From positions 1-53,132 of the forward strand of contig CAZKKF010000002.1 in the NCBI GenBank assembly GCA_964553285.1: a stretch of DNA of 53,132 bases, written 5' to 3'. Shown here piece after piece: positions 11,960 to 48,434 of this stretch (its first letter is position 1; each line of letters starts with the position of its first letter). The position numbers were made by a program, and so were the translations under genes. This DNA is from an uncultured Candidatus Saccharibacteria bacterium. GTDB taxonomy: Bacteria > Patescibacteriota > Minisyncoccia > Phycocordibacterales > Zambryskibacteraceae. Under the pieces are notes generated by a model, which saw only the letters and a program-made list of their open reading frames with translations, ran no database searches and had not been told where the DNA came from.

Positions 11960-12493
11960 CTATTTCTTGAACGGAAAGCCCAGGTAGTCCAAGAACGCCT
12001 CAAGCTCCTTTTTGGACTTGGCGGTGGTAACTATGGTGATAGCAAGGCCAAAAACGTCCTTGAGCTCCTCGTCAGAAGTCTCCGGGAAGATGGTGTGCTC
12101 CTTGATACCGATAGTTATATTGCCCATTTCGTCCATGGCGGTCCTCGATATACCGCGGAAGTCCTTGGTGCGCGGAAGGGAGATATTGAGCAACTTGTCC
12201 AGGAAGTCATACATCCTGGGGCCCCTCAATACCGCCTGCAATCCCACCACATCTCCCTGCCTCACCTTGAAAGAAGCCACAGACTGCTTGGCTCCTTTCC
12301 TTGCAGGCCTCTGGCCGGTGATGCGGGCAACCCTGTCGGCGGCAAGGTCAACTTTGTTCTTATCCTTGAAAGAGCCCACTCCGGCGGAAACCACCACTTT
12401 GGTAATGCGGGGCGCCTGCATGGGGTTCTTATAGCCCATGGAATCTTTCATGGACTTAAAGGCTTCTTTTACTTTTTGGTTTACTGTCTGCAT
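11960..12493 (-). CDS. rplE: 50S ribosomal protein L5
   Basis: APRITKVVVSAGVG...RGISRTAMDEMGNITIGIKEHTIFPE. Confidence 0.95.
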   Translation of the reverse strand: MQTVNQKVKEAFKSMKDSMGYKNPMQAPRITKVVVSAGVGSFKDKNKVDLAADRVARITGQRPARKGAKQSVASFKVRQGDVVGLQAVLRGPRMYDFLDKLLNISLPRTKDFRGISRTAMDEMGNITIGIKEHTIFPETSDEELKDVFGLAITIVTTAKSKKELEAFLDYLGFPFKK

Positions 12494-12508
12494 GGCTTTT
12501 GTTGAAAA

Positions 12509-12817
12509 TTATGAGATCTTGGCACCGCTCTTTGCGGCAACCCTCAGCTTCTTGCCCCCTTCTCTCACAAAGCGAACGCGCGTAGGTTTCTTGGTCTTGG
12601 GGTCTGCGATCATGACGTTTGAAACGTCAAACGGAGCGGCCTTCTCTACCACCTGGCCCTTGGTATTGGCCTTGCCTTTGCGCTGATGCACTTTCTTCAT
12701 ATTGACTCCTTCCACCAAAACTTTTCCGAGACGCGGAAAAGCGCGCACCACGGTAGAGGTTTTTCCTTTGTCCTTACCGGACATCACTATGACTGTGTCT
12801 CCTTTCTTGATTTTCAT
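12509..12817 (-). CDS. rplX: 50S ribosomal protein L24
   Basis: MKIKKGDTVIVMSGKDKGKTSTVV (KOW motif). Confidence 0.95.
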   Translation of the reverse strand: MKIKKGDTVIVMSGKDKGKTSTVVRAFPRLGKVLVEGVNMKKVHQRKGKANTKGQVVEKAAPFDVSNVMIADPKTKKPTRVRFVREGGKKLRVAAKSGAKIS

Positions 12818-12822
12818 GATAT

Positions 12823-13194
12823 TTATACGACTTCGGGCGCCAGGGAAATTATCTTCTGGTATCCCTTCTCGGCCAGTTCGCGGGGAATGGGACCGAACAC
12901 GCGGCCCGCTATCGGCTCCTGCTTGCCTTTTTCTATGATGACCACGGCATTTTCGTCAAAGCGAATATACGAACCGTCGGCGCGGCGGGTGGGAGCCTTG
13001 GAGCGAGCCACCACAGCATAAAGAACGTCTTTTTTCTTGACCTGCTTGCGGGGCTCGGCTTTCTGCACCGAGAGCACCACGATATCGCCTATGCGGGCAT
13101 AGCGCTTCTTTGAGGAGCCGAGCACCTTGAAGATGCGGCCAATCTTGCCGCCGGAGTTGTCTGCTATTTTTACTATGGATCTTGGCTGTATCAT
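12823..13194 (-). CDS. rplN: 50S ribosomal protein L14
   Basis: MIQPRSIVKIADNSGGK...IRFDENAVVII. Confidence 0.97.
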   Translation of the reverse strand: MIQPRSIVKIADNSGGKIGRIFKVLGSSKKRYARIGDIVVLSVQKAEPRKQVKKKDVLYAVVARSKAPTRRADGSYIRFDENAVVIIEKGKQEPIAGRVFGPIPRELAEKGYQKIISLAPEVV

Positions 13195-35999: not shown

Positions 36000-37760
36000 T
36001 TAACTCCCTGCAATACGAAAAGCTTCTTCCAGAGGAATATGCTTTTGAAAAGCGGCAAAAAGAGCCTCATCTTCAAGCAAGAGGCTCTTTTCCAGGCGCA
36101 TTTCCGCCTTTAGAGCCTCCACATCGGAAGCGGCCACCAGAGTTTTGGACGTAAGCCCGACAGGCACAACCTCATACACCCCGCGCTTGTCCCTTTTGTC
36201 CGACAAGCCTTCCCCCGCGCTCATAAACACAGGCATTTTCATGCCGCCTTTGGGCGACAGCACACCCTCCTCCTGCAAGGCAGTTATAACAAGCTTCAAA
36301 TCTGCTCCCTTTATTCGCTTCATAAGCTCTTTTTCGGGTATTTCTATCTCTTTGTCGCCGTAAGAAGTGCGGGCCGACAGGCGGCTGGTAACCGCAAGAG
36401 AGAGCACCGAGGCAAGCTTTGCTGGAGAAATACCAAAATCTTCCATTTTTGAAATCAAACCGGAAATGTTTTCGGTCTTGACCGAGGCCAAAACCAATCT
36501 GCCGTGGGCCGCCGCAGACACCGCAAGCATGGCCGTATCATGGTCTTTTATCTCGCTTATCATCAAAATATCCGCATCCTGTCTCATCGCCGCCCGAACC
36601 GCCGCCGGAAAAGAAAGCCCTTTGTCCGGACGGACGGTAATTTGGTTGACCCCCGCCAGAGAATGCTCTATGTGCTCCTCCACCGATATCGCCGTCTTGC
36701 CGGGGCGATTGGCAATATCAATCATCGTATAAAGAAGGGTGGTCTTGCCCGAAGAAGCGGGCCCGGCCACAAGTATCAAGCCGCTTCTTGCATGCAAAGC
36801 TTTGTGGGTATCCTCCAGGCCCTTGCCGTGGAAACCCAGAGTCTCCAGTGTGAAACCGGCTGAAGTCTCTTTAAACAAGCGCAGGACTATCCTTTCCCCG
36901 CGATGAGTGGGAACAACGGATATTCTTGCGGTGCGCAAAGACGCACCCTCGCCGAAAGACACCTTGCCTTCCTGCGCCAGGGCTGTCTCTTCCACCGTAA
37001 GACCAGAGAGCATCTTCAGTCTTGCAGACACTATGGGCGCAATGCGTGCAGGCAAGACCATGCCTTCGTGCAAACTTCCCCCGATACGAAACTTCACCGA
37101 AAGGCCTTTGTCCGCAGGCTCAAGGTGTATGTGATCGGCGTGCTGGGAGTTTGCATACCAAATGACAGATTCAAGCAGTTCGCTTGCCTGCGAACTCTCG
37201 GCGAGCACTTTTATATATTCCCCGGACAAAGCGGGATTTTTGGAAAGCTCGGAGAGAAGCGTCTCCGAATGCGAGTCCATCTGCCCTCCCACATGAGTGC
37301 GCACACCGCGCTGGTAGGCGATGAGCGCATACTTCATGGAAGCCGCATCCGTCAGGCGGCAGAGCACGGGCGCACCTATTCTCTCCTCCAAAAAAGAAAC
37401 GGCGTCCGCATCCAAAGGCTCAAGCGAGGCGACCTCCACCCCCTCCCCCTTGCGGGCAAAAGAAACAATGCGTTTTATGCGGGAAATCGGCTCCGGAACC
37501 AGAGAAAGTATCTCGTAGGAAAGCGCCCTGTTTGCAAGGCTCACAAAAGGGATGCCCGTCAAAGCCGAATAAGCTCGGCGCACATCATCCTCCCCCACCG
37601 CGCCGGAAAGAACGAGCGCCTGGCTCAATGGTATTTTCCTTTCCCTGGCATCATTCAGCGCAAGCTTCATCTCGGTTTTGGAGACAACGCCCGAGTCGGT
37701 GAGAAAATCCTTTAGCAAACTATCAGTGCGATCAATGTGCATATTATTTACATCAATCAT
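36000..37760 (-). CDS. pilB: type II/IV secretion / type IV pilus assembly ATPase (GspE/PilB family)
   Basis: N-terminal MshEN-like domain. Walker A is GPASSGKTT, followed by the DADILMISEIKD Asp box and His box. No pilC or pilM neighbours in the window. Confidence 0.85.
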   Translation of the reverse strand: MIDVNNMHIDRTDSLLKDFLTDSGVVSKTEMKLALNDARERKIPLSQALVLSGAVGEDDVRRAYSALTGIPFVSLANRALSYEILSLVPEPISRIKRIVSFARKGEGVEVASLEPLDADAVSFLEERIGAPVLCRLTDAASMKYALIAYQRGVRTHVGGQMDSHSETLLSELSKNPALSGEYIKVLAESSQASELLESVIWYANSQHADHIHLEPADKGLSVKFRIGGSLHEGMVLPARIAPIVSARLKMLSGLTVEETALAQEGKVSFGEGASLRTARISVVPTHRGERIVLRLFKETSAGFTLETLGFHGKGLEDTHKALHARSGLILVAGPASSGKTTLLYTMIDIANRPGKTAISVEEHIEHSLAGVNQITVRPDKGLSFPAAVRAAMRQDADILMISEIKDHDTAMLAVSAAAHGRLVLASVKTENISGLISKMEDFGISPAKLASVLSLAVTSRLSARTSYGDKEIEIPEKELMKRIKGADLKLVITALQEEGVLSPKGGMKMPVFMSAGEGLSDKRDKRGVYEVVPVGLTSKTLVAASDVEALKAEMRLEKSLLLEDEALFAAFQKHIPLEEAFRIAGS

Positions 37761-37876
37761 TATAAACAGCTAAACATGGCGTGCCTAGGACCTAAACTGC
37801 TAACAACGTCCCGCCGCCGGAAGCCGACGACGTGTTTTTCTTGGTGCAGTCAGTAAGGTGGAGGCAATCCTGCGAT

Positions 37877-38116
37877 TTAGCGTTTCTTGTTTTTTGTCAG
37901 ATTTATAAATTCTTCCCGGGAAATACCCAGGTCGGTCAAGATACCCCACAAAGTGCCTTTGGGTAGATCGTTGTTGCCATGCACCGGCACAACAATCCTC
38001 TTGCCATTGTTATCCCTAAGTACATGGTGGCTACCTTTTATATAATCCGGACGATAATCAATCCCCTGCAAAATCTTTAATAGTTGTTTGCCTGTAACAT
38101 TGGGCAATTTAGGCAT
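37877..38116 (-). CDS. hicA: HicA-family mRNA interferase toxin
   Basis: MPKLPNVTGKQLLKILQGIDYRPDYIKGSHHVLRDNNGKRIVVPVHGNNDLPKGTLWGILTDLGI (YcfA/HicA fold signature GSH...P.H). Confidence 0.85.
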   Translation of the reverse strand: MPKLPNVTGKQLLKILQGIDYRPDYIKGSHHVLRDNNGKRIVVPVHGNNDLPKGTLWGILTDLGISREEFINLTKNKKR

Positions 38117-38366
38117 ACGCTTTTTTGCTTCTGAAAACCGGAGTGGGAATTGATACGGTTTCAATGGATTGAAGCCCCTCATCACTTGGTATAGGGTCGC
38201 CGTTCTTCGCGCATGAAATAAGATAGGCTTCTATTGCCTCGTTCAGTCTTTTTTTGGTGTCTTCTATAGTGCTTCCAAAAGTATGACACCCGGGCAAAGC
38301 CGGAACAAAACCATGGTACTTTGTGCCGTCTTTTTCAATTACAGTGCGGAAAGAGTAGCTCTTCAT
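38109..38366 (-). CDS. hicB: HicB-family antitoxin (short form, no obvious DNA-binding domain)
   Basis: MKSYSFRTVIEKDGTKYHGFVPALPGCHTFGSTIEDTKKRLNEAIEAYL. 8-nt overlap (ATGCCTAA) with hicA. TTGCTC-N17-TATACT lies 8 nt upstream of the ATG. Confidence 0.8.
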   Translation of the reverse strand: MKSYSFRTVIEKDGTKYHGFVPALPGCHTFGSTIEDTKKRLNEAIEAYLISCAKNGDPIPSDEGLQSIETVSIPTPVFRSKKAYA

Positions 38367-38442
38367 ATATCGCAAGTATACCGACAGGCCCGAGCGAGAG
38401 CAAGCCGTTGATGTGGCAGTGTTCCTAGCCCCCATTTTCCCC

Positions 38443-38471
38443 TTGACTTCCCCTACCAACTATGATACAAT
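38443..38471 (+). promoter_or_regulatory. promoter module P2 (TTGACT-N17-TGaTACAAT followed by GGGGGTAGAAGGG)
   Basis: TTGACT 38443-38448, 17-nt spacer, extended -10 TGa-TACAAT 38466-38471. Confidence 0.6.
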
Positions 38472-38549
38472 GGGGGTAGAAGGGTAGGTATTCGCCTAAC
38501 CCCCGTACTTGGCGGCTCCAAGCAAGTTCTCTTCATAGGAGATGACGCC

Positions 38550-39158
38550 ATGACCGAGGTCATGACCCCATCGGAGATCACCGCAGGGCAGATCGGCAAG
38601 TTCCAGGAACTCCTGGGTGCCGGTCTCCGCAAGAGCGGACTCCAGAGCGAGCCGACCCAGACGGTCCTTGAGACCCAGGGTGACTCGCTCGTCACCGAGC
38701 TCGTTGCAGTGGTGCGCAGGCGGGTGGAAGCCATCGTCAACATGATCTTCCGCCGTGTTCGCGTAGATCGTACCAAGACCGCGACGCAGGTCATCGACGG
38801 CACTGGCCGCTACAAGTGGTACATCGACGAGGAAGTTCTCGCCGAGATGCCGATGCTCGGCCGTGAGGAGGATGATGTTGGGTTCTTTAAGCTCAACTAC
38901 GATCCAACTCCCGATGAACTGGACCGTGAGTACGAAGCTCGCGGCCTCCGTCCCGATCCTGCGGCCACGGCGCAAGCTATGGCTGACGACCCTGCCTTCG
39001 CTGATGAGCGGCCCGTTGGCGTTCAGTGGCGAGACAGCAGGGGTCGGGCGTGCTTCGCGATCTTCCGCCGCAGCGTCGGCGAGCGCGAGGTGTACGTCTA
39101 CCGCATCGATGACGGGTGGAGTCGGCGCTGTCGGTTTTCCGGCGTGCTCAAGGCCTAG
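38550..39158 (+). CDS. hypothetical protein, 202 aa, compositionally foreign (high G+C) ORFan
   Basis: AGGAGA (38537-38542) lies 7 nt before the ATG. Third positions are strongly G/C-biased. It has its own promoter and terminator. No motif recognised. Confidence 0.65.
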   Translation: MTEVMTPSEITAGQIGKFQELLGAGLRKSGLQSEPTQTVLETQGDSLVTELVAVVRRRVEAIVNMIFRRVRVDRTKTATQVIDGTGRYKWYIDEEVLAEMPMLGREEDDVGFFKLNYDPTPDELDREYEARGLRPDPAATAQAMADDPAFADERPVGVQWRDSRGRACFAIFRRSVGEREVYVYRIDDGWSRRCRFSGVLKA

Positions 39159-39186
39159 CTTCAGCACAGGGCCCTTACTTGGGCCG

Positions 39187-39211
39187 AGCACCTCCACTGG
39201 GGGTGCTTTTT
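39187..39211 (+). terminator. intrinsic terminator of the ORFan cassette
   Basis: AGCACCTCC-act-GGGGGTGCT (9 bp, one G.U pair) followed by TTTTT. Confidence 0.7.
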
Positions 39212-39256
39212 ACATATACATGGCGGGTGTCCGTGTACGCACTTTGCTCCAGCCAC

Positions 39257-39285
39257 TTGACTTTTGAGGCTCGCGGGTATATAAT
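39257..39285 (+). promoter_or_regulatory. promoter module P3 upstream of nusA (TTGACT-N17-TATAAT followed by taGGGGGTGAGAG)
   Basis: TTGACT 39257-39262, 17-nt spacer, TATAAT 39280-39285. Confidence 0.6.
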
Positions 39286-39315
39286 TAGGGGGTGAGAGTG
39301 CGTGGAAGTAGAGGA

Positions 39316-39344
39316 GGTTCGCCCGTCGGGCGGGCCATTTTTTT
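39316..39344 (+). terminator. leader terminator / attenuator between P3 and the nusA start
   Basis: GGTTCGC-ccgtcgg-GCGGGCC stem followed by A-TTTTTTT. It ends 23 nt before the nusA ATG. Confidence 0.55.
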
Positions 39345-39367
39345 AAGAGCAATCAGAAAAAACAATC

Positions 39368-40642
39368 ATGTTTGATCTCAAAGTCATAAACGCGGTCTTG
39401 GGAGAGCTTGAAGAGACGCGCGGCATACCAAAAGAAAAAGTCATAGAAGCCATAGAGGCCGCCCTTGCCACTGCCTACAGAAAAGAGTACGGCAAGCGCG
39501 GGCAGATAGTGCGCGCTAAGTTTGACATAAATACCGGCAAAACGGACTTCTTCCAGATAAAGACCGTGGTGGACGACACTCTGGTTTTCATGGACGACGA
39601 AGAAAAAGAAGAAGCTCTGGAGAAAAATCCGGAAGACGACCGCATCATGTTCAGCTCCGAACAGCACATACTCCTTGAAGACGCCAAGTTCATCAAGAAA
39701 GACGTGGCTTTGGATGACGAAGTGGTGTTCCCCCTGGAGCACAAAGACGATTTCGGCCGCATCGCGTCGCAGACCGCAAAGCAGGTCATCATGCAAAAAA
39801 TCCGCGAAGCGGAGAGAGTATCCGTAATGGGCGAATACGGCTCACGCGAAGGAGAGATAGTAACCGGCACCGTACAGCGCATTGAAAGGGGCGCCATCTT
39901 CCTTGATATAGGGCGCGCCACCGGCGTTTTGACCTTTGAGGAGCGTATCCCTGGGGAACACTTCAACCAGGGCGAGAGAGTAAGAGCATATCTTTATCGC
40001 GTAGAAGAATCTCCGCGCGGAGTTTTCCTCAAGCTTTCCCGCTCCCATCCTAAGTTTTTGGAGAAGCTCTTTGAGCTTGAGTCTCCGGAGATAGCAAACG
40101 GCATAGTTACCATAAAGGCCGTGGCCCGCGAAGCAGGTTCGCGTTCAAAAATCGCCGCTCACTCTGAAGACGAGCATGTCGATCCCGTAGGCTCCATGGT
40201 GGGCCAGAGAGGCGTGCGCGTTTCTACCGTCATGTCTGAACTGCGCGGAGAAAAGATAGACATCATTGAGTGGTCCGCCGACCCTGTGAAGTTTATAGAA
40301 GATGCCGTATCTCCGGCAAAAGCCATGAGCGTTGAGGTGGACGAGAAAGATCACAGAGCAACAGTGACGGTATCCGAAGATCAGCAATCGCTTGCCATCG
40401 GCAAGGGCGGACAGAACGTGCGCCTGGCGGCAAAGCTTACCGGCTGGAACATAGACATAAGGTCTGTCGCGGGAGAAGCCATAGCTCATGCCGATGAGAA
40501 AGCAAGCAAAGACGCTTCACCGGAAAAAGCCCCGGACATACATGCCGAAGATATAATTCCGGAAGAATCTGCGGCACAAAACCTTGAAGAAGCGAAGTCT
40601 GCGGAAAACGCTCCCGAGGAGACAAAAGAGGCGGTAGAATAA
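39368..40642 (+). CDS. nusA: transcription termination/antitermination factor NusA
   Basis: The N-terminal domain is INAVLGELEETRGIPKEKVIEAIEAALATAYRKEYG, followed by S1 and two KH domains (GKGGQNVRLAAKLTGWNIDI) and an acidic tail. Confidence 0.95.
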   Translation: MFDLKVINAVLGELEETRGIPKEKVIEAIEAALATAYRKEYGKRGQIVRAKFDINTGKTDFFQIKTVVDDTLVFMDDEEKEEALEKNPEDDRIMFSSEQHILLEDAKFIKKDVALDDEVVFPLEHKDDFGRIASQTAKQVIMQKIREAERVSVMGEYGSREGEIVTGTVQRIERGAIFLDIGRATGVLTFEERIPGEHFNQGERVRAYLYRVEESPRGVFLKLSRSHPKFLEKLFELESPEIANGIVTIKAVAREAGSRSKIAAHSEDEHVDPVGSMVGQRGVRVSTVMSELRGEKIDIIEWSADPVKFIEDAVSPAKAMSVEVDEKDHRATVTVSEDQQSLAIGKGGQNVRLAAKLTGWNIDIRSVAGEAIAHADEKASKDASPEKAPDIHAEDIIPEESAAQNLEEAKSAENAPEETKEAVE

Positions 40643-40683
40643 GCGCGGGCAAAAATTATCAAAATAAAAAATCAAAAAACACT

Positions 40684-41208
40684 ATGAACTTGTGGCACGA
40701 CGTAAAAGCGGGCGAAAAAAACAAGATGAATGTCATCGTTGAGATAGGCAAGGGTTCCAAAAACAAATACGAGATAGACAAAGAAACCGGTCTTATCGCT
40801 TTGGACAGAGCCATGCACTCCGCCCAGGATTATCCCTTTGACTACGGCTTCGTGCCGCAGACTCTCTGGCACGACGATGACGCGGTGGATGTAGTGCTCC
40901 TTGCCACCTGGCCCTTTGCTTCCGGCATCTTGGTGCGTGCCAGGCCCGTTGCCGTGATGAACATGATTGACGGCGGCGAAATGGATGACAAGGTTATAGC
41001 CGTACCGATAGACGACCCGCGCTGGGACAATGTACAGGATCTTGAAGACATAAACCCTCACACCATCAAAGAAATGGAGCACTTCTTCTCCACCTACAAA
41101 AAGATTCAGGGCAAAGAGGTTGAGGTAACAGGTTTCAAAGGCAAAGCGGAAGCGGAAAAGGTTTTTGAGGAAGGCCAAGAGCTTTACAACAAGAAATTCG
41201 GCAAATAA
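40684..41208 (+). CDS. ppa: inorganic pyrophosphatase (family I)
   Basis: VIVEIGKGSKNKYEIDKETG...DYGFVPQTL..DDDAVDVVLL...DDKVIAV. Confidence 0.95.
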   Translation: MNLWHDVKAGEKNKMNVIVEIGKGSKNKYEIDKETGLIALDRAMHSAQDYPFDYGFVPQTLWHDDDAVDVVLLATWPFASGILVRARPVAVMNMIDGGEMDDKVIAVPIDDPRWDNVQDLEDINPHTIKEMEHFFSTYKKIQGKEVEVTGFKGKAEAEKVFEEGQELYNKKFGK

Positions 41209-41322
41209 TAGTGCCTTTCCCTGCGGAAAAATCCCATTTTATGGGATTTTTTCTTATGGGGTATAATGTCCTTGTCCGTGGATTTCTCTATCGGACTGCA
41301 TTATAAGACTCAAGGAAAACCG

Positions 41323-41991
41323 ATGAAATTACATTTGACGGCCCTTGCATTGCTTGCTCTGGCAATAACCGCGCCTTTTGGAGCGATAAGCGGGCAAGAG
41401 ACAACAGAGTCGCGCCCCGCGGCAGATAGAGTGAATGCGGCCGAGGAATACCGCAAAGCTTTGGAGGAGCAGAAGCGGGCCTATGACGCATCTCTTAGGG
41501 CAAGGGAGGCTGAGATAAAGTCAGCCGTGGAAAAACGCCTTCAGGGACGCGATGAAACGGAAGCAAACATCAAAGAAAGAACCGCCGAAACAGGGAGGAA
41601 TATCTCCGACAGGGCCGATGCTGTCTCAAGCGAGATAAGCGACAGAACCGCCGCTTTGGTTGAAAGGATGACACTAAGCCAGCTCGGATTCATCAAGCGC
41701 CTGGAACTCATCGCCGAAAAAACCCAAAACCGCATAGGGGCAATCAGGGTAACAGGAGGAAACACAAGCGCCTCCGAGAGACTGCTTGAGGAAGCCCTTA
41801 GCGAGCTTGCGGAAGCAAAAAACAAAGTCGCGCGCCTCGGAGCAATGCTTGGAAGCGTTTCCGACAACAGCACTTTGCGCATAGCCTGGAACGAATCAGG
41901 AAAGGCGGCAATAGCGGAAATTAACAGCCACATCAGAGAGGCCCACCGCCTTATCACCGAGGCCGTAGCGGCGCTCAAAGCAGGAAATTAG
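41323..41991 (+). CDS. secreted coiled-coil protein, hypothetical
   Basis: Signal peptide MKLHLTALALLALAITAPFGAISG, then an E/R/A-rich helical sequence. Confidence 0.5.
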   Translation: MKLHLTALALLALAITAPFGAISGQETTESRPAADRVNAAEEYRKALEEQKRAYDASLRAREAEIKSAVEKRLQGRDETEANIKERTAETGRNISDRADAVSSEISDRTAALVERMTLSQLGFIKRLELIAEKTQNRIGAIRVTGGNTSASERLLEEALSELAEAKNKVARLGAMLGSVSDNSTLRIAWNESGKAAIAEINSHIREAHRLITEAVAALKAGN

Positions 41992-47135: not shown

Positions 47136-47145
47136 CCCTATTGAA

Positions 47146-47192
47146 ATCACTTCAGGGTGCTTGCACCGCGTAGCTCTGTACCCAGAGCGAAG
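47146..47192 (-). repeat. 47-nt structured tRNA-Gly 3' trailer, copy A
   Basis: 41/47 identical to 47656-47702. Contains hairpin GCTCTG-ggta-CAGAGC (minus strand). Confidence 0.7.
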
Positions 47193-47266
47193 TGGTGCGG
47201 GATGGGAGAATCGAACTCCCGCCCACAGTTTGGAAAACTGTTATTCTACCATTAAACTAATCCCGC
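47193..47266 (-). tRNA. tRNA-Gly (anticodon UCC), CCA encoded
   Basis: Hand fold: acceptor GCGGGAT/ATCCCGC, anticodon stem ACAGT/ACTGT, loop TTTCCAA, T-arm GGGAG-TTCGATT-CTCCC, 3' ACCA. Confidence 0.85.
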
Positions 47267-47294
47267 TTAGACGAGAGTATACCGCAATATATAA

Positions 47295-47582
47295 TTATTG
47301 CACCAGCGCAAGCACCGCCTCCTCGTTATCCTCTTTTACTATACTTGCCGCCCTTTCAAAACCGCACATCTCACATTTGTGCAAAATCCTCACCGGCACT
47401 CCCCCGCGCGCTTCCACACCCACAGGCTTCATCATGCCTCCGCACCCCTCTTCCCTGTCTCCGGGAAAAACGTCAACGTGTTTTGACCAAAGACAATTCG
47501 GACAATGATTTGTGTATCCATTGCCCTCCACCTGAGTGCCGCATTTCTCGCAAACAAAATCCTCCTTGGTTCTGATAAACAT
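47295..47582 (-). CDS. RNHCP-domain zinc-ribbon protein
   Basis: FVCEKCGTQVEGNGYTNHCPNCLWSKHVD...CGGMMKPV...HKCEMCG fits the RNHCP family signature (NHCP.CL.S.H). Confidence 0.7.
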   Translation of the reverse strand: MFIRTKEDFVCEKCGTQVEGNGYTNHCPNCLWSKHVDVFPGDREEGCGGMMKPVGVEARGGVPVRILHKCEMCGFERAASIVKEDNEEAVLALVQ

Positions 47583-47655
47583 TTAGGATTTATGAATTAT
47601 TGCCATGTGTGGACTGAAGACAAAGCTGTTCAGGATGTGGAGAAGTAGATTATAA

Positions 47656-47702
47656 ATCACTTCGGGGGGCTTGCACTTCGTAGCTTTGTACTCAGAGCGA
47701 AG
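47656..47702 (-). repeat. 47-nt tRNA-Gly 3' trailer, copy B (overlaps the RNHCP promoter -35)
   Basis: 41/47 identical to copy A. GTGCAA(47676-47671)-N16-TATAAT(47654-47649) on the minus strand. Confidence 0.7.
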
Positions 47703-47776
47703 TGGTGCGGCTACCGGGAATCGAACCCGAATCTCGTCCTTGGCAAGGACGCGTTCTACCACTAAACCATAGCCGC
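47703..47776 (-). tRNA. tRNA-Gly (anticodon GCC), CCA encoded
   Basis: Acceptor GCGGCTA/TAGCCGC, anticodon stem CGTCC/GGACG, loop TTGCCAA, T-loop TTCGATT, 3' ACCA. Confidence 0.9.
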
Positions 47777-47827
47777 AGTGCAAGCACTTTAGCAGAAAAA
47801 ACAGGCTTGCTCAACTAACCTAAAATG

Positions 47828-47898
47828 TCGGAGCGCCGAGAATCGAACTCGGACCTCATGCTCCCAAAGCATGAATACTGCCACTATACTACGCTCCG
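47828..47898 (-). tRNA. tRNA-Pro (anticodon UGG), no encoded CCA
   Basis: Acceptor CGGAGCG/CGCTCCG, anticodon stem CATGC/GCATG, loop TTTGGGA (G37), T-loop TTCGATT. Confidence 0.9.
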
Positions 47899-47958
47899 TT
47901 TGGCCTCTACCAGAGACCAGAATACCCTATCCTACACGAATAAGGAAAATAAACCTTG

Positions 47959-48029
47959 TCGGGCTGCCGGGAATTGAACCCGGGCCTTACCCACCCCATG
48001 GGCAAATACTACCGTTATACTACAGCCCG
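47959..48029 (-). tRNA. tRNA-Pro (anticodon GGG), no encoded CCA
   Basis: Acceptor CGGGCTG/CAGCCCG, anticodon stem TGCCC/GGGTA, loop ATGGGGT, T-loop TTCAATT. Confidence 0.85.
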
Positions 48030-48082
48030 CACGCTCCCTTGCGGGAGCCTCACAAACCCAAACTCCGTACCAAAATTTTGCT

Positions 48083-48153
48083 TCGGACTGCTGAGAATCG
48101 AACTCAGGGCTCACGAACCCGAATCGTGTATATTACCACTATACGACAGTCCG
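48083..48153 (-). tRNA. tRNA-Pro (anticodon CGG), no encoded CCA
   Basis: Acceptor CGGACTG/CAGTCCG, anticodon stem CACGA/TCGTG, loop TTCGGGT, T-loop TTCGATT. Confidence 0.9.
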
Positions 48154-48286
48154 TTAAATTTGATACGGCAAGGCAAACTATATATCATAAAGGCTAAAAA
48201 TTGAAGATTAGCCGAATAAGGTTATTATGTACCCTGCCTGGAAGTGATCTAAATATATTTCCAGGCTTGCCCCGTAAAGGCAATAT

Positions 48287-48358
48287 GCACCCGTGGTGAA
48301 ATGGATATCACAACGGTCTTCGGAACCGTTGTTGTGGGTTCGAGTCCTGCCGGGTGCA
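48287..48358 (+). tRNA. tRNA-Arg (anticodon UCG), no encoded CCA
   Basis: Acceptor GCACCCG/CGGGTGC, D-stem GTGA/TCAC, anticodon stem ACGGT/ACCGT, loop CTTCGGA, T-loop TTCGAGT. Confidence 0.9.
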
Positions 48359-48434
48359 CTACTTAGTGGTTCAACAAACTCACCACAAGCAAGCTCAGTG
48401 CAAGCCCTATGAACATCCCCTCATTCGAAGGTTT

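Follow-up and report, generated by a model that had tools for sequence, protein, structure and literature searches.

The open reading frame (ORF) at 38550..39158 of contig CAZKKF010000002.1, which was analysed over a stretch of 53,132 nucleotides (nt) (the window), is, on homology and on the behaviour of its relatives, a member of a large, predominantly Patescibacteria (candidate phyla radiation, CPR) family of variable, or target, proteins of diversity-generating retroelements (DGRs). A DGR carries an invariant template repeat (TR), whose transcript is reverse-transcribed with misincorporation at adenines; the resulting cDNA then replaces the variable region (VR) of the target gene. This mechanism is established (PMC5758913). 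The canonical cassette of the present family comprises, in this order, the target gene, a TR of ~100 nt, Avd (encoded on the opposite strand), and a reverse transcriptase (RT) gene. TR RNA would be copied with random misincorporation opposite adenines, the cDNA would replace the last ~100 nt of the gene, and this homing would rewrite ~7-10 codons on one face of the C-terminal beta-hairpin in a ligand-binding domain of C-type-lectin-like form. The window copy is the module from ribosome-binding site to stop codon alone, lodged between hicBA and nusA, and we hold with moderate confidence that it is a decoupled, 'frozen' target, which is no longer mutagenised. Such a frozen variant may still be expressed, and selection may maintain it as a soluble protein that binds with fixed specificity, probably in the cytoplasm.

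The initial annotation, which was made from the sequence by eye, described the 202 amino acid (aa) product as an ORFan. This description is refuted by 125 full-length homologs of ~200 aa, the best of which (P0002-P0004) are 68-70% identical to the window protein over its full length (E about 1e-82), and by a wider set of at least 891 clusters (50% identity, E<=1e-3) of ~200-aa homologs, 447 of them at E<=1e-10. Its remark that no family could be recognised is accurate for the model collections, as nothing in Pfam, NCBIfam, PHROGs, or PADLOC matches the window protein or any of 47 family members, and is inaccurate in so far as a large family of homologs exists. Sequence and profile searches of the PDB gave chance matches only. 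The named sources of the homologs are mostly Patescibacteria (Paceibacterota, Zambryskibacteria, Andersenbacteria, Moranbacteria, Nomurabacteria, and others), and the few metagenome-assembled genome (MAG) labels that name other phyla appear to reflect binning errors. With respect to a phage-borne target, no relative was found on viral contigs (IMG/VR), nor was there a PHROG match.

The assignment to DGRs comes from the surroundings of the relatives, which were surveyed as 76 loci from species-representative genomes (70 loci in the neighbor census). In the first relatives examined, the homolog adjoins a bAvd gene (PF22296) and a reverse transcriptase gene (PF00078), and the last ~100 nt of the homolog are repeated 320-440 nt downstream. 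Mismatches between the two copies fall on TR adenines in 15/15, 17/17, and 12/12 instances, the last at the P0004 locus, and in 8/8 at the P0003 locus (read by eye from the alignment); because the mismatches are confined to adenines of the downstream copy, this is the diagnostic DGR pattern. The VR/TR pairs of 38 loci together contain 628 mismatches, of which 588 coincide with a TR adenine and 7 with a VR adenine. A TR or an RT is present in 35 of the 50 full-length loci with at least 2.5 kb of downstream sequence, and the layout after the target stop codon places the TR at 312-445 nt, Avd (opposite strand) at ~430-550 nt, and the RT at ~950-1050 nt. Both nearest relatives with context are DGR-linked (L004/L005, Ca. 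Zambryskibacteria, 69%; L083, 70%), and Avd and RT are the only recurrent neighbors across the 70 loci. Given the linkage to TR, Avd, and RT and the adenine-specific mismatches across loci, the family is one of DGR variable proteins, and the homology of the window protein to members with a demonstrable VR is both full-length and significant.

The cassettes of the relatives have some features of their own. In L001, L004, L006, L083, and most other DGR-linked loci, avd is on the strand opposite to TR, VR, and RT (e.g., L004:10735-11203), and its stop codon lies within a few bases of the TR 3' end, so that the sense sequence past the TR is antisense to avd; this orientation differs from the avd-TR-brt layout of the Bordetella phage. 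In L001:9555-14900, the target-TR unit occurs twice, its flanks are duplicated (a repeat of 300 nt at 98% identity and several repeats of 45-98 nt, spacing ~2432), and an IS200/IS605-type Y1 transposase gene (PF01797, weak) lies between the two units; the post-VR element described below also occurs after the second target (12376-13056, 226 aa). The VR of L006 fits the TR of L007 (18/18 mismatches at adenines) better than its own adjacent TR (16/22), and as both loci belong to the same MAG (Ca. Zambryskibacteria RIFCSPHIGHO2_01_FULL_46_25), this suggests either cross-servicing between two DGRs or a decaying TR.

In the window copy, the parts that correspond to those of a DGR target are the following:

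38550..39158, plus strand: ORF of 202 aa from the ORF listing, the member of the DGR variable-protein family.
39051..39152, plus strand: VR equivalent, residues 168-201, of which 39051-39145/39151 aligns to the TRs of L005, L083, and L006.
39087, 39093, 39099, 39105, 39111, 39120, and 39126, plus strand: family-hypervariable codons (entropy >3 bits).
39120..39158, plus strand: terminal template-matching block, similar to an initiation of mutagenic homing (IMH) site, with ...RFSGVLKA* in place of the near-invariant ...FAGVRK*.
Residues 12-63: N-terminal helical hairpin (AlphaFold2 model).
Residues 64-106: small alpha/beta subdomain (AlphaFold2 model).
Residues ~107-200: C-type-lectin-like domain, beta-alpha-alpha-beta-beta-beta-beta (AlphaFold2 model).

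The AlphaFold2 model of the window protein, which was built on a 47-sequence alignment, has a mean predicted local distance difference test score (pLDDT) of 92, and the C-terminal domain modelled alone reaches 90. All whole-domain Foldseek matches are C-type lectins (CD23, snaclecs, BDCA2, CLEC5A, and a herpesvirus lectin), with TM-scores of 0.42-0.49 and E>0.3; against the PDB and BFVD, neither the full-length nor the C-terminal model gave a significant E-value, and known DGR variable proteins were not retrieved. The predicted C-terminal domain may therefore be described as C-type-lectin-like, which is the fold expected of DGR targets, with the reservation that the likeness falls short of the usual thresholds. 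Across the family, the hypervariable residues (>3 bits) are 180, 182, 184, 186, 188, 191, and 193, and they are interspersed with the near-invariant V181, V183, R185, and W190, and also F196 and G198. This alternation implies that one face of the beta-hairpin is diversified. The dN/dS ratio is 0.6-0.7 in the VR vs. 0.20-0.27 outside it. Of 50 conserved columns, the window protein departs from the consensus in one, R200L, and agrees with it in 49. There is no signal-like segment, and no family member has a hydrophobic segment of transmembrane grade, in agreement with a published remark on CPR targets (PMC8144416).

Mtd of the Bordetella phage, TvpA of Treponema, and TaqVP of Thermus are DGR variable proteins with C-type-lectin folds (PMC6328139). 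The present family is like them in that its variable residues are in the last ~35 residues and on a beta-hairpin surface, in its predicted topology, and in its AAC template codons. On the other hand, it has no detectable sequence similarity to these proteins, and its domain is unusually small (~95 residues) and preceded by a helical hairpin that those proteins do not have.

The window copy itself stands alone. Searches of the window by tblastn with two CPR DGR RTs and Avds returned noise only (E>0.4), and no TR-like repeat of 39020-39158 was found within it. DNA homology to the DGR-linked relatives is limited to 38536-39152 and ends six bases before the stop codon. In the relatives, both DGR-linked and orphan, the stop codon is followed by a conserved element of ~53 nt (consensus nCTTnGnnCTTGGnCnCTTnG...CCTTTGACCTTnGnCCTTG), and a profile of this post-VR element finds 59 places in the related loci and none after the window ORF (E<=10, filters off). 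The terminal 33-nt block of the VR, where, as at the Bordetella phage IMH, a match to the TR is required, shares 82-91% identity among the DGR-linked subfamily and 67-73% with the window; while it is the most conserved DNA in the DGR-linked relatives, in the window it has diverged at about the gene-wide rate. Because it is without TR, Avd, RT, and post-VR element, and because its template-matching end has drifted, the window copy is most likely decoupled.

The post-VR element is a candidate target-recognition element for retrohoming. In the Bordetella phage BPP-1, the IMH and a downstream GC-rich inverted repeat are the target-recognition elements (PMC5758913). The family is like BPP-1 in that the VR 3' end is ultra-conserved and a weakly structured element of ~53 nt follows the stop codon, at adjacent as well as remote targets, and it differs in that the candidate element is longer and carries a periodic CTTnG pattern, and in that the window copy has none. 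Compared with dinucleotide shuffles, the post-VR elements taken together show more structure (mean z -1.12, p about 2e-8), a support which is collective only (z -1.4 for the window). RNAalifold predicted no consensus structure on the post-VR alignment; inspection by hand suggests that an inner hairpin covaries. The stem of this hairpin differs by locus (GGTTC/GAACC, GATCC/GGATC, TGCAC/GTGCA, GTGAGC/GCTCAC, and others). The CTTnG periodicity can be seen, for example, at L063:10627-10678, and a strong GC hairpin often follows at +47 to +57.

Orphan copies are not rare in this family, as 15 of the 50 well-flanked loci (~30%) are without an adjacent DGR. Two of them, L059 and L062, are on the same contig as a complete DGR. 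The L059 VR differs from the L018 TR, which is ~206 kb away on contig CAVURJ010000001.1, at 15 positions, all 15 of which are TR adenines, and the L062 VR differs from the L049 TR (contig DATDWN010000015.1) at 19 positions, 16 of which are TR adenines. This indicates trans-diversification of remote targets in Patescibacteria. Remote DGR targets, such as those of Treponema denticola and Legionella, are located far from the RT and serviced in trans (PMC5758913); the window copy differs from these in having no servicing TR in its 53 kb. In the survey of Wu et al. (2018), remote targets >100 kb away occur solely outside the CPR set (PMC5758913), so that the L059/L018 and L062/L049 pairs display a trans behaviour unseen in that CPR set.

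The window ORF might in the same way be an active remote target, with a complete DGR elsewhere in the genome rewriting 39051-39152 in trans and GVLKA* matching a divergent TR. This is possible, if rather unlikely. Remote servicing is documented for other DGRs (PMC5758913), the family has its 15 loci apart from any adjacent DGR with L059 and L062 serviced in trans, the window protein is intact, and the adenine content of the window VR is 11%, as in active VRs (12%). However, in trans-serviced copies the sequence after the VR closely resembles that behind the servicing DGR's own target (near-identical for L059 vs. L018), and nearly all orphan loci keep the element, while the window has none; the terminal block of the window has diverged at about the gene-wide rate, and no DGR component is present within 53 kb.

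Several points weigh against the frozen-target interpretation. The adenine-poor window VR does not look long abandoned, and the servicing of L059 over ~206 kb makes trans-servicing a real process in relatives. Only 53 kb of a fragmentary MAG are visible, and a DGR may be present elsewhere in the genome. That homing needs the post-VR element would follow by analogy with the inverted repeat of the Bordetella phage. The similarity to C-type lectins is below the usual TM-score of 0.5 and without a significant Foldseek E-value.

The base composition of the gene is what had first drawn attention to it. The original hand counts of G+C per 60-nt row were exact in four of four cases (40/60, 43/60, 31/60, and 21/60), and codons do end predominantly in G or C (153 of 202). 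The gene is atypical for its host: its GC content is 63.1% vs. 50.6% for the window, making it the highest-GC 609-nt stretch of the 53 kb (z=4.2), its GC at third codon positions (GC3) is 0.76 vs. ~0.55-0.60 in the other window ORFs, and 27 of 29 ordinary genes have a higher codon adaptation index than its 0.59, by which translational selection for C-ending codons in this host was rejected as a cause.

It had further been proposed that the donor was a high-G+C organism, for example an actinobacterium. This proposal is not supported. The homologs are mostly from Patescibacteria, and the target is richer in GC than its flanks in 62 of 63 loci, by 13 points on average, in hosts ranging from 33 to 61% GC (regression slope 0.36), while the Avd and RT genes are host-like or AT-rich. 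In 28 complete cassettes, GC amounts to 57% in the non-VR target, 67% in the VR, 55% in the TR, 47% in the spacer, 45% in Avd, 43% in the RT, and 48% in host ORFs, and in L004, L083, and L006, Avd and RT are at 37-41%. Adenine makes up 12% of the VR vs. 27.5% of the TR, and the extra GC and low adenine of the VR are attributable to A-to-N mutagenesis. Outside the VR, ~3 points of the 10-point excess are due to amino-acid content and ~7 to synonymous choice, which is driven by C-ending codons (C3 0.40 vs. 0.25). This excess shows no gradient within the gene and does not extend past the ORF on either side, and it is likewise ORF-bounded in 49 other loci.

Three further sources of this signature were considered and rejected. 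RT-driven adenine loss as a cause of whole-gene GC would deplete adenine, and outside the VR it is T that is depleted (-0.075), far beyond A (-0.017). GC-biased conversion graded from the VR homing tracts is at odds with a GC3 that is flat at 0.65-0.73 along the gene, and origin of the whole cassette in a GC-rich donor is at odds with the 37-45% GC of Avd and RT. Since the excess is family-wide, ORF-bounded, mainly synonymous, and absent from Avd and RT, it is no evidence for a high-GC donor. As judged from these comparisons, the high G+C is a trait of the family itself that travels with the gene from one patescibacterium to another.

Movement of the gene is supported by the discordance between the target and its genomic background. 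When the window is compared with L004, identity is 36% for PilB, 44% for TpiA, and 43% for Pgk, all three syntenic, as opposed to 69-72% for the target. At four-fold sites of conserved codons, the target differs at 0.48-0.49 of positions vs. 0.67-0.69 at saturation (a ratio of ~0.7), whereas housekeeping genes are at 0.86-1.01 of four-fold saturation. Because the housekeeping genes are less identical and nearer to saturation, the target moved among Patescibacteria after the hosts had diverged. The whole cassette has probably moved among Patescibacteria as well, since identities of 66-75% are seen for RT and Avd when L004, L083, and L006 are compared. A caveat applies to these rates: synonymous change in the target may also be slowed by constraint at the nucleotide level, and in the cassettes of L004 and L083 saturation reaches 0.68 for the target as against 0.89 for RT and 0.84 for Avd. 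Of the earlier claim that this is a recently acquired accessory gene, horizontal exchange is thus supported and the high-GC donor is not.

A more far-reaching proposal is that the target family is a mobile, ORF-bounded, GC-rich module, extending from the ribosome-binding block to the stop codon, with its own signature of C-ending codons and slow synonymous change, in which Avd and RT have no part and which does not follow host codon usage, and that it can be captured as a stand-alone gene of 'frozen' binding specificity. We put this forward as a conjecture that is, on balance, unlikely. If true, DGRs of episymbionts would generate new binding proteins of fixed specificity that are later domesticated, and the compositional signature would be an unrecognised requirement, or a by-product, of retrohoming on the whole target gene.

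It is very improbable that the gene is, as first annotated, a foreign ORFan from a high-G+C donor in a defence or addiction island with hicBA, possibly conferring toxicity or phage resistance. The atypical composition and codon usage, the adjoining hicBA, and the discordance of target and housekeeping identities, which supports horizontal exchange, are in line with this view. It is contradicted by the hundreds of homologs, mostly labelled Patescibacteria, by a GC excess that occurs in 62 of 63 loci irrespective of host GC and is missing from the co-resident Avd and RT, and by the lack of PADLOC and PHROG matches, of viral-contig relatives, and of recurrent toxin-antitoxin neighbors. The island itself found no support, as there is no PADLOC match and no toxin-antitoxin cluster among the recurrent neighbors in the 70 loci. 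A hicA/hicB pair is present in L004 too, where it is beside pgk and not beside the target. A functional link to type IV pili was also rejected, because a PilB neighbor occurs in just 7 of 70 loci.

CPR DGRs form a clade of their own (DGR clade 2, Roux et al., 2021), with targets that are without recognisable membrane or other domains (PMC8144416), and Wu et al. (2018) described CPR VR classes ('UVR') with unassigned folds (PMC5758913). The present family shares with these targets a C-terminal VR of ~100 nt, adenine-only TR mismatches in relatives, and an adjacent Avd and RT; it also has no transmembrane or known domain and occurs mostly in CPR genomes. The window copy departs from them in that it is without TR, Avd, and RT in 53 kb and without the post-VR element, and in its drifted terminal block. 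By homology and family behaviour, then, the ORF is a DGR target, and within the window it lacks what would characterise a working one, namely a cognate TR, a nearby RT, and an intact template-matching end. The first survey of CPR DGR targets was reportedly that of Paul and colleagues in 2017. DGRs are unusually frequent in Patescibacteria, where their targets have, to our knowledge, no assigned role, and the surveys were unable to assign folds or to detect remote or orphaned targets.

What is added here is modestly new: a uniform large family with a confident model, a post-VR element that is missing from the window copy, and a family-wide, ORF-bounded GC signature. An apparent foreign ORFan becomes a member of a very large, uniform family of DGR targets with a structural model, in which ~30% of copies are apart from any DGR and some are serviced in trans over >200 kb. 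The post-VR element may mark competent targets. The GC signature could mislead the detection of horizontal gene transfer and genomic islands, and it might also serve to locate DGR targets. Annotators who meet a GC spike confined to one ORF in a CPR genome may be looking at a DGR target and not at a gene recently imported from a GC-rich source.

The window gene has the attributes of a self-contained transcription unit and accessory gene that had been claimed for it, and its ORF was confirmed at 38550..39158. Its flanking signals are as follows:

38443-38471, plus strand: promoter-like TTGACT-N17-(TG)aTACAAT, 10/12 match with TG extension, ~78 nt upstream of the ATG.
38536..38549, plus strand: conserved ribosome-binding block AGGAGATGACGCC, directly before the ATG.
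39159..39211, plus strand: downstream region with hairpin GGCCC-TTACTT-GGGCC (39170-39185), then a 9-bp hairpin and T5 (39187-39211).

The promoter had been claimed from this sequence, and the site is indeed present; with three promoter-like sites vs. 1.3+/-1.1 expected in the region, it is not striking. The stretch 38443-38471 has no homology to relatives, and its promoter function would have to be read from its consensus match. L083 and L006 have consensus promoters of their own at a similar distance from the target ATG, from which it appears that a private promoter is seen in the subfamily. The ribosome-binding site AGGAGA was correctly placed 7 nt before the ATG. The block AGGAGGATGACGCC-ATG, also written AGGAG-ATGACGCC-ATG, is shared with L005 and L083, and DNA homology of the window to these loci starts at 38536/38537. 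The predicted terminator is also there, with a 9-bp hairpin and T5 at 39187-39211 (-14.2 kcal/mol); a terminator scan made no call at 39187-39211, because some of the Ts can be drawn into pairing with the stem. An antisense ORF of 233 aa (38496-39197, minus strand) spans the whole gene and is a shadow ORF typical of GC-rich coding sequence.

The neighbors are those originally named, HicA (PF07927), HicB (PF15919/PF21748), PilB/T2SSE, and NusA, and TpiA, Pgk, and Ppa are also present. The hicB and hicA genes are on the minus strand (37877-38369), with the hicB ATG at 38369 followed by hicA with a probable ATG at 38116, and the hicB stop and hicA start overlap by 8 nt. An independent assembly of run SRR16797977 contains a locus, L082, that is 100% identical to window 38461-41884 over 3.4 kb; it begins 89 nt before the ATG and takes in nusA and ppa. 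Because this assembly gives an identical target-nusA-ppa order, the nusA junction is no assembly artefact. The abrupt compositional boundaries at both ends of the ORF might otherwise have pointed to a GC-rich segment misjoined to the contig, and the hicB side is outside the independent assembly, which starts at 38461. With the identity from upstream of the ATG through ppa, and with ORF-bounded GC boundaries being normal in 49 other family loci, a chimera is very improbable.

Between the target and nusA, a near-consensus promoter-like TTGACT-N17-TATAAT (11/12) at 39257-39285, upstream of the nusA ATG at 39368, is followed after ~30 nt by a strong terminator-like hairpin with T7 (39316-39344). 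The segment 39257-39367 looks like a short leader or attenuator for nusA; Rfam gave no match in window 37700-39500, and this nusA leader region is likewise without a family.

The host is placed among the Patescibacteria because every named neighbor of its EF-Tu (83-87% identity) is labelled Patescibacteria, Paceibacterota, or Zambryskibacteria. The best EF-Tu neighbors are 87-88% identical, and EF-Tu, EF-G, NusA, Pgk, and Ppa of the contig are each the sole member of their own 90%-identity cluster; the organism is without a close sequenced relative. Six tRNA genes are present at 47144-48359 (Gly-TCC, Gly-GCC, Pro-TGG, Pro-GGG, Pro-CGG, and Arg-TCG), and the repeats seen at 47-48 kb are tRNA genes. 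Directly downstream of the two tRNA-Gly genes, ~50 nt are conserved (84% identity over 73 nt). A direct repeat of 52 nt (52460-52511/52896-52947, 73% identity, spacing 436) lies among small overlapping ORFs; as a VR/TR pair it was rejected, because its mismatches are not adenine-specific.

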